The position numbers and the translations under genes were made by a program. Of a stretch of 29,860 nt of DNA, positions 1-28,849 are shown in pieces. The notes beneath the pieces are model-generated. The model worked only from the letters and a program-made list of their open reading frames with translations. It was not told where the DNA came from and did not search any database. Numbering within the stretch: position 1 is the stretch's first letter; each line of letters begins with the position of its first letter. The stretch lies in IMG/VR virus record IMGVR_UViG_2703718820_000019. One strand, given 5' to 3'. The stretch is from a virus. Its lineage: Duplodnaviria > Heunggongvirae > Uroviricota > Caudoviricetes.

Positions 1-981
1 TTATAACGTCACTCCTCCTTTTAGAGGATTCAGCGCGACGGCATTTTGCAGGTAGTCAGGCGCAAGGTGCGCATAGGCCATCGTCTGCTGAATGCTCGCA
101 TGTCCCAGAATCTGTTGCAGTGCGATTATATTGCCCCCATTCATCATGAAATGGCTTGCGAATGTATGCCGCAGGATGTGGGTTGCCTGATTGGGTGGTA
201 TATCTGGCTTCACTCTGCGTAAAATCCCGCAAAACTTCTCATAATCAACTTTGAATAATTTAGCGCTGGCCTCCTCTTTAACTTTTTTCTCCAGTTCCTC
301 AGAAATCGGCACGGTTCGCTTTTTACCGTTTTTGGTTTTCAGGAAGGTAACCCTGCAATTTGTAATCTGTGCTGGTTTTAGCGTGGCAACTTCCGTCCAT
401 CTTCCTCCAGTGCTCAGACATAAAAGTGCGACAAGTAAGTCATCACCAGCCAAAACATTTAACAGTTTTTCGATTTCTGCTTTTTCCAGGAACGTCATTT
501 CAGGGTTGGCCTCCGCCAGTGGCGGCAGTCCGTGAATTGGGTGTTGCCCGGAAAATTCATCCAATTGAATTAATTTTGTGAACATGCCGGATAATCGGTA
601 CATGTCACGGTTTATCGTTGCGGCACTGATACCATCACGTAGTCGCATGGAACGATAATCCATCAAAGCTCTTTTGCTCATCCGGCTCACTGGTATATCA
701 CCTATGCCGCTGATGGTTTTGAGCAGATGATTAAACTCTTTTGTTCCATGCTCGTGGTTTTGCCCGTGATATTTCCACCAGATGTCCAGCAACTCACTCA
801 AAGTTCGGCGATCTGCTCGCTGACCTGCCCATTCTTTCTGGCTGGCGTAGGCGATTGTGTATCGCTCAAATGCTACAGCCTCAGCTTTTCTTTCAAATTT
901 CCTGCGGATGCGTTTTCCGTCGCGACCGCGAGGTCTAATGTCCACTTCATAGCGTCCATCATCGAGCTTCTTAATTGACAT
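1..981 (-). CDS. int: P2-family tyrosine integrase (site-specific recombinase)
   Basis: ORF 1..1011 on minus strand. Translation aligns along its length with my recollection of P2 Int (N-terminus MSIKKLDDGRYEVDIRP..., C-terminal HxLRH...Y tyrosine-recombinase region ...HILRHTFASHFMMNGG...LGHASIQQTMAYAH). Preferred start is the ATG at 981 (SD-like GAGGG 7 nt upstream, matches the P2 Int N-terminus); the in-frame ATG at 1011 is an alternative. Stop codon is at 1-3, so the gene is complete but attL is outside the window. Confidence 0.9.
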   Translation of the reverse strand: MSIKKLDDGRYEVDIRPRGRDGKRIRRKFERKAEAVAFERYTIAYASQKEWAGQRADRRTLSELLDIWWKYHGQNHEHGTKEFNHLLKTISGIGDIPVSRMSKRALMDYRSMRLRDGISAATINRDMYRLSGMFTKLIQLDEFSGQHPIHGLPPLAEANPEMTFLEKAEIEKLLNVLAGDDLLVALLCLSTGGRWTEVATLKPAQITNCRVTFLKTKNGKKRTVPISEELEKKVKEEASAKLFKVDYEKFCGILRRVKPDIPPNQATHILRHTFASHFMMNGGNIIALQQILGHASIQQTMAYAHLAPDYLQNAVALNPLKGGVTL

Positions 982-1050
982 AAGAAAGCCCTCTGACGCT
1001 GTATTCACCATCTTGGTAACAAATGGTGAAAATGTAATGTTTATAGAGTG

Positions 1051-1344
1051 TTAACCAGTCTGTTTTTCGGAGTGGTCTGATTCTGTTGGTTTTTGCCCAA
1101 TGTGTGCGAGAGCCGGCGCGATCTGACCAGCTTGTGGTGACGTATCACCAGTCATTAACCAGAGCGTATATTTTTTAAATAAAGGCGTATTTGTGACTCG
1201 CATAACGATGCTGAGACCAGGGTCTTTATGCCCACTTTCGTAATTTTTGACTGTTCCTAGAGCTATCCCGCTAATTTCGCTGAATTTCGCCTGTGTTAAG
1301 CCTTCTGCTTTCCTAATCGCTTTCAGTTTTTCGAATGTCTGCAT
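1051..1344 (-). CDS. C: P2-type immunity repressor C (heteroimmune to P2)
   Basis: 97 aa; the C-terminal half (FxKYTLWLMTG...SGQIAPALAHxGQ) matches P2 repressor C as I remember it, but the N-terminal HTH region differs. Position is between int and cox, same strand as int, as in P2. Confidence 0.85.
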   Translation of the reverse strand: MQTFEKLKAIRKAEGLTQAKFSEISGIALGTVKNYESGHKDPGLSIVMRVTNTPLFKKYTLWLMTGDTSPQAGQIAPALAHIGQKPTESDHSEKQTG

Positions 1345-1373
1345 TTGACAGTAACCTATTGGTGACTTATATT
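1345..1373 (+). promoter_or_regulatory. Candidate early lytic promoter Pe (sigma70): TTGACA (1345-1350), 17-nt spacer, TATATT (1368-1373)
   Basis: Consensus -35 hexamer, 17-bp spacer and a 5/6 -10 hexamer read directly from the sequence, oriented toward cox. The -35 overlaps the C start codon, consistent with the face-to-face Pe/Pc arrangement of P2-like switches. Confidence 0.55.
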
Positions 1374-1400
1374 CCCGTCAAAAGGTTGTGTATTGGTGAC
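1357..1400. promoter_or_regulatory. Candidate repressor operators: direct repeats TATTGGTGAC at 1357-1366 and 1391-1400 flanking the putative Pe -10
   Basis: Perfect 10-bp direct repeat, 34 bp centre to centre, flanking the -10 hexamer. P2 C repressor is known to bind two direct repeats flanking the Pe -10 region. Confidence 0.5.
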
Positions 1401-1416
1401 CTTTTGGGTGTGTTAG

Positions 1417-1457
1417 CCAGTCCCTAGAAAGGACAGGGGCGACCTAGAAGGGACTGG
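1417..1457. promoter_or_regulatory. Candidate Cox-box / Pc-region element: direct repeats CCTAGAA(A/G)GGAC (1422-1434, 1442-1454) inside an inverted repeat CCAGTCCC...GGGACTGG (1417-1424 / 1450-1457)
   Basis: Repeat symmetry read directly from the sequence, located between the putative Pe and the cox start where the lysogenic promoter Pc and Cox binding sites lie in P2-like phages. Confidence 0.3.
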
Positions 1458-1496
1458 ATCTAATAAGGGTAACACGAAAGCAAAAAGGGCTAATCA

Positions 1497-1769
1497 ATGG
1501 AAGTCAATGACTATGTGATTCAGTACCCGATTGATGCGGTACATACGGTTAAGTTTGCAGAGTTACTTGGTAAGCCAGAAACGGCTGTAGTCAAGATGGT
1601 AAAAGAGAATAAATTGCCAGTTATTGAGCTTCGTGATCCAAGTAAGCCGAACGCTCGTGTCGGTGAGAAGTGGGTTTTCATTCCAGAGTTTAATCGCGCT
1701 GTACGAGAGGCGTTTTATAACCGACCAGTTGAACAGCGTGATGCATGGCTTTTGTGGATGGGGTTGTGA
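1497..1769 (+). CDS. cox: Cox-like excisionase / transcriptional switch protein
   Basis: 90 aa, divergent from C; similar size and sequence pattern to P2 Cox as I remember it (...KLPVIEL...GEKWVFIPEFN...DAWLLWMGL at the C-terminus). Confidence 0.85.
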   Translation: MEVNDYVIQYPIDAVHTVKFAELLGKPETAVVKMVKENKLPVIELRDPSKPNARVGEKWVFIPEFNRAVREAFYNRPVEQRDAWLLWMGL

Positions 1770-1771
1770 TT

Positions 1772-27917: not shown

Positions 27918-27998
27918 TGTTTTTATTTTATCTGTTTGTTTTATAAGGATAATTTAACTAAAATGGCACCATCAACAAAACCGGAAGAGGTGCTCGCG

Positions 27999-28217
27999 AT
28001 GTTTCATTGTCCTTTATGCCAGCATGCCGCACATGCGCGTACAAGCCGCTATATCACTGACACGACAAAAGAGCGTTATCATCAGTGCCAGAACGTGAAT
28101 TGTAGTGCCACGTTCATCACTTATGAGTCGGTACAGCGATACATCGTGAAGCCGGGAGAAGTCCACGCCGTAAGGCCGCACCCGTTGCCGTCAGGGCAGC
28201 AAATTATGTGGATGTAA
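27999..28217 (+). CDS. ogr: Ogr late-gene transcriptional activator (zinc finger)
   Basis: From the ATG at 27999 gives 72 aa (MFHCPLCQHAAHARTSRYITDTTKERYHQCQNVNCSATF...), matching P2 Ogr with its Cys4 zinc finger. The listed ORF extends upstream to 27936. Confidence 0.9.
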   Translation: MFHCPLCQHAAHARTSRYITDTTKERYHQCQNVNCSATFITYESVQRYIVKPGEVHAVRPHPLPSGQQIMWM

Positions 28218-28228
28218 TTACAAACAGG

Positions 28229-28251
28229 AAGCCCCTCAGCCGAGGGGCTTT
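28229..28251. terminator. Hairpin terminator between ogr and the convergent downstream gene (likely bidirectional)
   Basis: Stem AAGCCCCTC (28229-28237) / GAGGGGCTT (28242-28250), 4-nt loop, flanked by an A-run upstream and T residues downstream. Lies between two convergent stop codons. Confidence 0.55.
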
Positions 28252-28268
28252 CAACTTTGTTTAGGAGC

Positions 28269-28670
28269 TTATTTCCCTGTGTAAAGACGTGTTTGGGATG
28301 AAAGTAACACTTGCCCCTGTTTAGGCGTCAACGAACCTATTTCATTGCATGTTTTTAATGGTTCGGAAAAAACATAACCGATGGATTTATATTGATTAAC
28401 TATGCTTATTTCTTTGATTTTTTTGAGATATGAAACAGGCGTGTCTTTTGTCCAGACTGGTGCGCATACACCAGTCATAATCAGGTTGTTGTAGGCGTCA
28501 GGAGAGATTTCTTTGCCAGGAAGCACCACCGTAAGCGAGTTGTTTTTATTCGTGATTTCTAGGGGTTGCCATGGTTTAAGCTGCTTTTGAAGGGTTTTAA
28601 TATCATTCGCGTTTGCGTTGAGTGAAATTATTAAGGTGGCTATTGCCATCACTGATTTAAGAGTTGCCAT
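28269..28670 (-). CDS. Small secreted/periplasmic hypothetical protein (signal peptide); probable prophage cargo at the ogr-att junction
   Basis: 133 aa; N-terminal signal peptide (hydrophobic core ...AIATLIISLNANA, probable cleavage after ANA); two Cys in the mature part. ATG at 28670 with AAGGA SD. The gene is visibly AT-rich compared with the flanking DNA. Confidence 0.7.
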   Translation of the reverse strand: MATLKSVMAIATLIISLNANANDIKTLQKQLKPWQPLEITNKNNSLTVVLPGKEISPDAYNNLIMTGVCAPVWTKDTPVSYLKKIKEISIVNQYKSIGYVFSEPLKTCNEIGSLTPKQGQVLLSSQTRLYTGK

Positions 28671-28731
28671 AGAAAATCCTTAATAAACATTTGGTTGAGT
28701 AAAATTCATACCTCCAAAAAGAGGAAAAATA

Positions 28732-28754
28732 AAGCCCCATGTGCTTAGGGGCTT
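28732..28754 (-). terminator. Hairpin (AAGCCCC...GGGGCTT) with a minus-strand U-tract; candidate att-core-associated structure at the right prophage end
   Basis: Stem 28732-28738 / 28748-28754 with a 9-nt loop, preceded on the plus strand by GAGGAAAAATAA. The motif AAAAATAAAGCCCC...GTG...AGGG resembles the P2 attP core as I remember it (AAAAAATAAGCCCGTGTAAGGGAGATT). Cannot be confirmed without attL. Confidence 0.3.
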
Positions 28755-28849
28755 TCAGTAGTCGATGTGGACGCTATGTGGACAGTGTTTGATATAAATC
28801 CATTTATATCATCAGGTTAGGTGCATTTTTGTGACACCATCCCTGTCTT

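Follow-up and report, generated by a model that had tools for sequence, protein, structure and literature searches.

Does the 29,860-nucleotide stretch of IMG/VR virus record IMGVR_UViG_2703718820_000019 (hereafter the window, meaning the whole of the DNA that was analysed) carry a prophage that is still intact, and to which relative of phage P2 does it belong? The original prediction described a near-complete P2-like prophage, and this description was borne out. Judged by its sequence, the region from 1 to 28879 is very probably an intact temperate Escherichia coli prophage of the P2 family (genus Peduovirus) and of the Wφ type, built as a mosaic of known modules. It fills the window from the stop codon of the integrase gene, which forms bases 1-3, to the core of the right attachment site. 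The element belongs to a phage group that has been described in depth, within which it is ordinary; it is already known, textbook rather than new.

The open reading frames (ORFs) follow the order of a P2 prophage: int on the minus strand, C, cox, B, A, Q, P, the operon from O to S, V to G, FI to D, and ogr. After ogr there is a small minus-strand ORF and then the host gene fieF, which reaches the last base of the window. Peduovirus phages were the nearest records by megablast (96-98% identity), and about 87% of the prophage aligned to Wφ at 90-97.5%. P2-like prophages are very common, with matches in 3,774 of 5,426 complete E. coli genomes; 673 of these genomes cover at least 80% of the first 25 kb of the window.

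Gene content compared with P2

Forty-two translated P2 reference proteins were compared with the window by tblastn, and each match was then read from its start codon to the first stop. Thirty genes were single full-length ORFs of exactly the P2 length, with 93.6-100% amino acid (aa) identity. They were Q, P, O, N, M, L, X, Y, K, lysA, lysB, lysC, R, S, V, W, J, FI, FII, E, T, U, D, ogr, B, A, orf78, orf80, orf82, and orf83. orf81 was also intact, with 99 aa compared to 100 in P2 and 89% identity. The P2 gene set for replication, packaging, head, lysis, baseplate, and tail is complete and in P2 order, with B, A, and ori serving replication and cos, P, M, and Q serving packaging.

A whole-genome blastn comparison was performed against P2 permuted at attP. 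The alignment consisted of four large ungapped blocks (1771-6020, 6758-16157, 16222-18543, and 21535-28251) at 94.5-97.3% identity, and the only real indels were two 1-nucleotide (nt) insertions in the non-coding spacer between cos and Q. Among 6,575 codons of 25 genes, 434 changes were synonymous and 97 were non-synonymous. This strongly purifying pattern indicates genes kept under selection. The claim that every essential P2 gene is present as an intact ORF of P2-like length was confirmed, except that I, H, and G deviate in length, and the alignment to P2 that had been proposed as its check showed no frameshift or truncation in an essential gene. The cos site, Ogr, and the integrase were likewise present as predicted: cos is an exact match and Ogr is 100% identical to that of P2, whereas the integrase is intact but of the Wφ type.

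The early block of orf78, B, orf80, orf81, orf82, and orf83 is located at 1772-3525 on the plus strand, with B at 1939-2439 (plus strand), and shows 89-99% aa identity to P2. The portal gene Q (6975-8009) and the large terminase gene P (8009-9781) are encoded on the minus strand at lengths equal to those of P2, with 99.4% and 99.7% aa identity, respectively. The O operon (9955-16155, plus strand) contains O, N, M, L, X, Y (holin), K (endolysin), lysA, lysB, lysC, R, and S, all at P2 length and with 93.6-100% aa identity. It is followed by the baseplate genes V, W, J, and I (16222-18718, plus strand), of which V, W, and J are 98.6-99.3% identical to P2. The F operon, with FI, FII, E, E+E', T, U, and D (21615-27917, plus strand), also retains P2 lengths at 98.1-99.4% aa identity.

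Integration and immunity module

The three proteins of the integration and immunity module were compared with their counterparts in Wφ and P2. The tyrosine integrase gene int (1-981, minus strand) encodes 326 aa with the Pfam domains Int_N and Phage_integrase, and its product is 100% identical to Wφ Int and 52% identical to P2 Int. The immunity repressor C (1051-1344, minus strand; 97 aa, Pfam HTH_3) is 100% identical to Wφ C and 46% identical to P2 C. The cox gene (1497-1769, plus strand; 90 aa, Pfam Phage_Cox), which encodes the excisionase and repressor of Pc, gave 100% aa identity to Wφ Cox and 43% to P2 Cox.

The transcriptional switch between C and cox (1345-1496) contains the promoter Pe (TTGACA-17-TATATT), the operators O1 and O2, and the Pc region. 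The operator half-sites O1 and O2 have the sequence TATTGGTGAC, which is present twice at Pe as direct repeats spaced about 34 nt apart. The switch differs from that of Wφ by one base over 156 nt, and positions 1345-1400 are identical to a published wild-type Wφ Pe/operator oligonucleotide that was used experimentally (PMC1904263). More broadly, positions 1-6529 are 97.5% identical at the nucleotide level to Wφ 22712-29247.

By these alignments, the immunity region is not a diverged form of the P2 region; it has been cleanly exchanged for the module of Wφ. Since C, Cox, and the operators are identical to those of Wφ, the prophage should be homoimmune with Wφ and heteroimmune to P2.

Attachment core and insertion site

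The right end was located by aligning the attR of the window with the attB of E. coli K-12, the attP of Wφ, and the attL of a closely related prophage in E. coli MEI148-20EC. attR (28725-28879, plus strand) consists of the phage P arm and a 47-bp core, and it is 90% identical to the left arm and core of Wφ attP. The P arm carries the Int arm repeats ATGTGGAC. The core, GACACCATCCCTGTCTTCCCCCACATG(A/C)TGTGGGGGTTTTTTTTATC, lies at 28833-28879 (plus strand); the sequence on its left side is the Wφ P arm, and that on its right side is the K-12 attB sequence leading into fieF. The same 47-bp sequence was found between int and cpxP, at attL, in the MEI148-20EC prophage. The alignment therefore sets the true right boundary at 28879, and the end at 28760 given in the original prediction did not hold. 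A distance of 115 bp separates the int stop codon from the core in both Wφ and phage GMS190, so attL is expected about 116-162 bp before base 1, beyond the window. The phage genome deduced from these ends is about 29.0 kb.

On this alignment, the prophage is inserted at the Wφ attB, a site that lies upstream of fieF and corresponds to the 3' end of the transcript of cpxP/cpxQ. The gene fieF itself (28958-29860, plus strand) belongs to the host and not to the prophage, and it is 99.7% identical to the annotated fieF of E. coli genomes. The Wφ prophage of E. coli W (Wphi1) is located at cpxP-fieF (PMC3032704), and the MG1655 coordinate listed for Wφ is consistent with this site (PMC3448106). In E. 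coli MEI148-20EC a prophage is annotated at the same cpxP-fieF site.

The core takes in the final 44 nt of cpxQ, a small RNA (sRNA) gene annotated with a length of 58 nt in K-12, plus 3 nt. The overlap corresponds to the terminator end of the cpxP 3' untranslated region. Because the core lies within cpxQ, integration would split this gene, and the phage would supply a replacement 3' end at attL. In the relatives, the replacement end shows one C-to-A change in the hairpin loop. A promoterless 3' fragment of cpxQ would be retained at attR. A tRNA scan of the window found no tRNA gene, and the integrase is therefore not a tRNA-targeting one. No Rfam family reached its gathering threshold at any position of the window. 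When the attR region was scanned with Rfam at permissive settings, the sole matches were sub-threshold chance ones to the terminator hairpin, and the CpxQ family was not among them, so the CpxQ overlap is based on the K-12 annotation and the alignment.

Replication, packaging, and late-gene control

The replication endonuclease gene A (3515-5800, plus strand) encodes 761 aa, the same length as in P2, with 98.2% aa identity. The nick site of the origin (ori) maps near position 5373, inside A. Of the 66 bases compared with the nick region of P2, 65 are conserved, and the sole change is the first base compared, about 32 bases from the nick site. The 19-nt cos site, GGCGAGGCGGGGAAAGCAC, at 6787-6805 (plus strand) is an exact match to P2 cosL/cosR and lies next to Q; its flanks are conserved with P2 from 6758 onwards.

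Four late promoters (pP, pO, pV, and pF) were recognised by sequence, together with Ogr; they were assigned by comparison. The divergent promoters pP and pO with their Ogr-responsive site (9782-9954) are 100% identical to P2 2990-3170. A search for Ogr sites with the pattern TGT-N12-ACA gave no exact match in the window, not even at the P2-identical pP/pO. This pattern was therefore too strict, and the late promoters were instead compared directly with those of P2 and Wφ. The pV region equals that of Wφ apart from one base and is a predicted promoter; the 66-bp S-V junction (16156-16221) contains a TGT-N12-ACC element and a GC hairpin. pF (21520-21614, plus strand) is P2-identical from 21535 and overlaps the 3' end of the invertase gene described below. 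Its upstream activator element TGT-N12-CCA is kept despite a position left of the breakpoint at which homology to P2 begins. This element overlaps the last codons of the invertase gene (21503-21555).

The slippery sequence TTTTTTG for E/E' (23642-23648, plus strand) is identical to that of P2, and the E+E' frameshift product has one changed residue. The late activator gene ogr (27999-28217, plus strand) encodes a zinc-finger activator that is 100% aa identical to Ogr of both P2 and Wφ. Its promoter differs from that of P2 at 3 of 81 bases, and a terminator hairpin follows at 28227-28252 (plus strand).

Fibre module and invertase

Within the fibre module, the original prediction had named the fibre tip as differing from P2, but the whole unit from the C-terminus of I through H to G differs. 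The product of I has 203 aa compared to 176 in P2; it is 82% identical to P2 with a non-P2 C-terminus, and its gene matches the 612-nt gene I of phage pro483 and the MEI148-20EC prophage. The tail fibre gene H (18715-20514, plus strand) encodes 599 aa compared to 669 in P2, with the Pfam Phage_tail_fib N-terminal domain and 50% identity over the first 337 residues. Its constant part extends to about residue 349 and is followed by a variable tip (Sv). In place of G (175 aa in P2) there is a tail-fibre assembly chaperone of 125 aa (20514-20891, plus strand; Pfam Caudo_TAP); the annotation of E. coli JX21CE8 includes this same gene, with a length of 378 nt. Thus the C-terminus of I, H, and G are all replaced, not the tip alone, and the replacements are intact and match other P2-like phages.

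Identity to pro483 was 97.7% over 6652-19470 and then about 71% up to a crossover site in H. Identity to the MEI148-20EC prophage was 96.6% up to 19771. A serine DNA invertase gene of the Hin/Gin/Cin/Pin family (20962-21555, plus strand; 197 aa) follows the chaperone. It was assigned by PHROG_125 ('DNA invertase') and by the Pfam domains Resolvase (3e-52) and C-terminal HTH_7 (5e-13), and the stretch 20893-21620 that contains it is 95% identical to pro483 at the nucleotide level. These comparisons assign the invertase, the constant part of H, and the C-terminus of I to the type seen in pro483 and MEI148-20EC.

In Mu Gin/G, P1 Cin/C, and e14 Pin/P, a serine invertase adjoins the fibre genes, and a 26-bp crossover site lies at the constant/variable junction. 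Here a Din-family crossover site, TTCTCGCATACC-TT-GGTTTGGCTAAT (TTCTCGCATACCTTGGTTTGGCTAAT), is present at 19751-19776 (plus strand) inside H at this junction, and it is the best full-site match in the window. A scan with AAACCNNGGTTT gave matches at chance level overall (12 found, 13.9 expected), among which only the H site stands out. It aligns with the corresponding site of pro483, where close homology had already fallen off about 300 bases earlier.

At the invertase-proximal position only a right half-site remains, AA-CGTTTAAGAAAA (20893-20906, with the half at 20895-20906, plus strand). The left half is missing, and the stop codon of the chaperone gene occupies its place. At the same point, MEI148-20EC and pro483 have a full site, TTCTCCCAAACC-AA-CGTTTATGAAAA (TTCTCCCAAACCAACGTTTATGAAAA). 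The invertible segment of these relatives runs from the site in H through Sv-U and the inverted U'-Sv' to the second site just upstream of the invertase, with 1.0-1.1 kb of inverted genes between chaperone and invertase. An alternative inverted Sv'-U' is absent here, as the stop codon of the chaperone gene and the start of the invertase gene are no more than 70 bp apart. The alignment to MEI148-20EC is interrupted between 19771 and 20893, which are the two site centres.

The Sv-U cassette is 1.15 kb long (19752-20899), and a 99.7% identical cassette was found in just 3 of the 5,426 complete E. coli genomes. In JX21CE8, the one of the three that was examined, the cassette belongs to an unrelated prophage at dusA with Mu/SfV-type baseplate genes, and it is directly followed by a half-site and then by a different invertase. 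Homology to this cassette begins at the H crossover site. In both phages, its left bound falls exactly at the central dinucleotide of the Din site, and its right end at the centre of the hybrid half-site beside the two different invertases. Among 50,697 phage records, the 249-aa tip has only distant protein relatives, with at most 41% identity over the last 100 residues.

With one full crossover site and one half-site, the invertase is most likely unable to switch the fibre. The locus is probably a collapsed invertible segment locked in one orientation. Horizontal transfer of fibre genes is a long-proposed idea for invertible fibre systems. We infer from the cassette boundaries that Sv-U may have moved between phages by recombination at the crossover sites.

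Viability and alternative explanations

As far as the letters of the DNA can show, the prophage is supported as intact rather than cryptic and looks viable. A published list of phages with demonstrated viability includes Wφ (PMC3448106), and deposited phage genomes of similar size include STYP1 (28,946 bp), pro483 (29,237 bp), and GMS190 (29,462 bp). A literature search yielded no useful information on the viability of pro483.

In the proposed cycle, C bound to the two direct-repeat half-sites would keep Pe off and maintain lysogeny. If Cox won the switch, it would repress Pc and direct Int-mediated excision at the 47-bp core. A would then nick ori for rolling-circle replication, Ogr would activate pP, pO, pV, and pF and with them the four late operons, and terminase would cut at cos and package the genome of about 29.0 kb. 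By analogy with the known phages, we infer that the element could excise, form plaques, and adsorb with its present fibre.

Several observations weigh against an intact and productive prophage. The left junction (attL with the P' arm) lies outside the window, so completeness is presumed from the attR side. No genome or phage record in the collections searched matched the whole element at 99% or more; the exact mosaic is undeposited in these collections, and phage production from it has no precedent. The genes, read from sequence, may contain missense defects. At the nucleotide level, the Sv-U cassette was absent from all 50,697 phage records, and competence for adsorption is thus presumed. A half-site scan detected no second full crossover site elsewhere in the window, and the two inverted 26-bp sites that inversion requires are not present as a pair.

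These observations bear mostly on the possibility that the prophage is intact in sequence but functionally defective, through a damaged attL or through an imported tip and chaperone that do not function on a P2 baseplate. A rare inversion at the half-site, which could decapitate H, would be a further route. Besides the position of attL and the single full crossover site, a functional defect is favoured by the rarity of the cassette, present in none of the phage records and in three complete E. coli genomes, with the examined one in another prophage type. The corresponding stfP gene of JX21CE8 is annotated as incomplete. However, H reads as one uninterrupted ORF of 599 aa through the crossover site, and the chaperone ORF is likewise intact and has a complete Caudo_TAP domain. 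The remaining genes and sites cannot be told apart from their counterparts in viable phages, and the substitution pattern is strongly purifying. A cryptic element is therefore unlikely, though the possibility deserves real weight.

A further alternative is that the invertase still drives a switch, in which the full site and the hybrid half-site recombine to invert Sv-U as an ON/OFF switch rather than an A/B host-range switch. The invertase ORF is intact, and the surrounding stretch matches pro483, which has a full invertible segment, at the 95% nucleotide identity given above. The end of the JX21CE8 cassette at the half-site centre by a different invertase also suggests that the hybrid site has recombined. 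However, the left half of the invertase-proximal site fits the half-site consensus at 3 of 12 positions by inspection, and in the scan a half-site score was obtained for the right half alone. Invertases of the Din family are known to work as dimers that bind a pair of half-sites. In addition, there is no alternative Sv'-U' to express, and the OFF state would yield fibreless particles. We consider a working switch quite improbable and retain a fibre that is probably locked in one orientation.

The original prediction called the element inducible-competent rather than cryptic. Intactness in sequence stood, but "inducible" was not supported. Phage 186 is SOS-inducible through LexA-controlled Tum. 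An SOS-inducible prophage of this 186/Tum kind is very improbable here, as no feature in the window supports it. LexA boxes did not exceed chance in the window (6 one-mismatch matches, 9.3 expected), none of the matches lay upstream of a candidate antirepressor, and no Tum-like antirepressor was found among the ORFs of the window with Pfam and PHROG. The C protein is the Wφ repressor, a relative of the P2 repressor, and P2 is described as the classic example of a temperate phage that is not inducible (Bertani & Bertani 1970, cited in PMC5009727). With no LexA box, no Tum homologue, and a non-inducible P2, SOS induction is not expected. By analogy, the Wφ-type repressor presumably resembles that of P2 in non-inducibility, and release is expected to be spontaneous or driven by P4/Cox rather than by SOS induction.

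Finally, the view that the element is P2 itself, of the same immunity and integration class with an immunity region that merely drifted, can draw on late genes 94-100% aa identical to P2 but was rejected and is practically out of the question, because the identity to P2 is no more than 52% for Int, 46% for C, and 43% for Cox, whereas all three equal Wφ at 100%, and because the att core and the insertion site belong to Wφ, not P2.

Cargo positions and accessory genes

Besides the immunity region and the fibre tip, the differences from P2 had been placed at the three known cargo positions. All of these loci do differ, but the list was incomplete. The old/tin and orf30 positions are empty and Z/fun holds the invertase; the invertase and a fourth insert, between ogr and attP, had been missed.

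The old/tin position (6530-6786) is effectively empty, with 257 bp and no gene of any size. Its sole feature is a terminator-like hairpin at 6599-6623. By alignment breakpoints, the same position spans 3.4 kb in Wφ and about 3 kb in P2. At the orf30 position, S and V are joined by the 66-bp junction, which is one base off that of Wφ, and an equal 66-bp gap is annotated in Wφ, STYP1, and pro483. The Z/fun position is occupied by the Din-family DNA invertase. The old/tin locus, between A/orf91 and cos, and the Z/fun locus, between G and FI, are reportedly the anti-phage defence hotspots of P2 phages (Rousset et al. 2022). PADLOC detected no defence protein in any accessory ORF, including the ORFs flanking old/tin. 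To judge from these searches, the prophage is without a recognisable anti-phage system at the usual P2 hotspots.

Two non-essential genes lie downstream of A. The first is an orf91-like gene (5797-6252, plus strand) for a 151-aa protein with ASCH/DUF3850 and DUF7415 domains (Pfam, PHROG), and the second is an orf92-like gene (6240-6458, plus strand) for a 72-aa protein without assigned function. This region is common to Wφ, GMS190, and the MEI148-20EC prophage. The Wφ record has separate orf91 (93 aa) and orf92 (64 aa) genes, whose sequence lies largely inside the 151-aa ORF here. The difference may reflect a frameshift in Wφ or natural variation between the two arrangements.

A low-GC (38%) insert of 470 bp (28252-28724, minus strand) separates the terminator of ogr from the P arm of attP. 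It is missing from Wφ, P2, and STYP1, and it is present in the phage record GMS190 between ogr and attP. Its presence there marks it as phage cargo and not host DNA, and the ogr-attP insert is a fourth cargo position. The insert contains an ORF for a 133-aa signal-peptide protein (28269-28670, minus strand), which belongs to PHROG_3807 (function unknown). This right junction is shared by 44 complete E. coli genomes.

The 133-aa protein has two invariant cysteines and gave no match in Pfam or PADLOC. Only 15 homologue clusters were found, all in Enterobacterales and all annotated "hypothetical"; the homologues come from a few Enterobacterales and the phage records GMS190 and KSP20. An AlphaFold2 model had a moderate mean predicted local distance difference test score (pLDDT) of 69.8. 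It matched no PDB fold below E = 0.03, and in BFVD it matched uncharacterised proteins only, with the best match from Serratia phage KSP20. This secreted protein could be a candidate lysogenic-conversion factor at the fourth P2 cargo site.

Significance

The element has little significance beyond annotation, as the region can be assigned to a well-characterised Wφ-type Peduovirus at cpxP/cpxQ-fieF. A capacity to act as helper for P4-like satellites is predicted as probable. Specialist interest lies in the collapsed fibre segment, whose rare tip is common to an unrelated prophage, in the secreted protein beside attP, and in an attachment core that coincides with the 3' end of the CpxQ sRNA. Speculatively, and with a low probability in our estimate, the fibre locus may be the trace of a cassette exchange that a recombinase mediated between prophages of unrelated types. 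Separately, the 133-aa protein is a possible conversion factor. If the hybrid site is recombinogenic, the "orphan" invertase might swap tips between co-resident prophages or act as an ON/OFF switch, and not as a classical A/B host-range switch.

Comparison with known phages and inversion systems

Wφ (Peduovirus Wphi, NC_005056) shares with the prophage the identical Int, C, and Cox (100% aa) and Pe/O1/O2, as well as the attP P arm, the 47-bp core, the cpxP-fieF site, the 66-bp S-V junction without orf30, and the orf91/orf92 match. It differs in holding mth, orf96, and orf98 (3.4 kb) at the old/tin position, compared to 257 bp here, and orf44 at Z/fun, where the present element has the invertase. 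Wφ also has P2-type I, H, and G, and it is without the 470-bp insert. Moreover, orf91 and orf92 are separate in Wφ, whereas orf91 is extended here and covers most of the orf92-like sequence.

P2 (NC_001895) shares the gene order, the essential genes at equal length, cos, ori, the E/E' site, pP/pO, pF, and Ogr (100%). The present element is without old, tin, orf30, and fun(Z), and it has another integration and immunity module. The C-terminus of I, H, and G are replaced, and the invertase and the moron between ogr and att are added. Its genome is about 29.0 kb compared to 33.6 kb in P2.

Phage pro483 and the MEI148-20EC prophage have in common with the element the 203-aa I, H in its constant part and its crossover site, and the invertase with its pF junction. 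For the MEI148-20EC prophage, the agreement extends to the early region, the 133-aa gene, and the site of insertion. Both differ in having the full second crossover site TTCTCCCAAACCAACGTTTATGAAAA and the inverted Sv'-U', whereas the present element carries a different Sv-U cassette. Yersinia phage GMS190 (OP880302, deposited as 'unverified') shares the early region, the tail genes, and the stretch from ogr through the moron with the 133-aa gene and attP to int as one contiguous unit. It differs by about 0.7 kb more sequence at old/tin, another fibre, and no invertase match.

Compared to the Din systems of Mu (Gin/G), P1 (Cin/C), and e14 (Pin/P), the fibre locus shares an invertase beside the fibre genes, and the point where the constant part meets the variable part is likewise marked by a crossover site. 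It differs from them in having one full site and a half-site, with no alternative tip.

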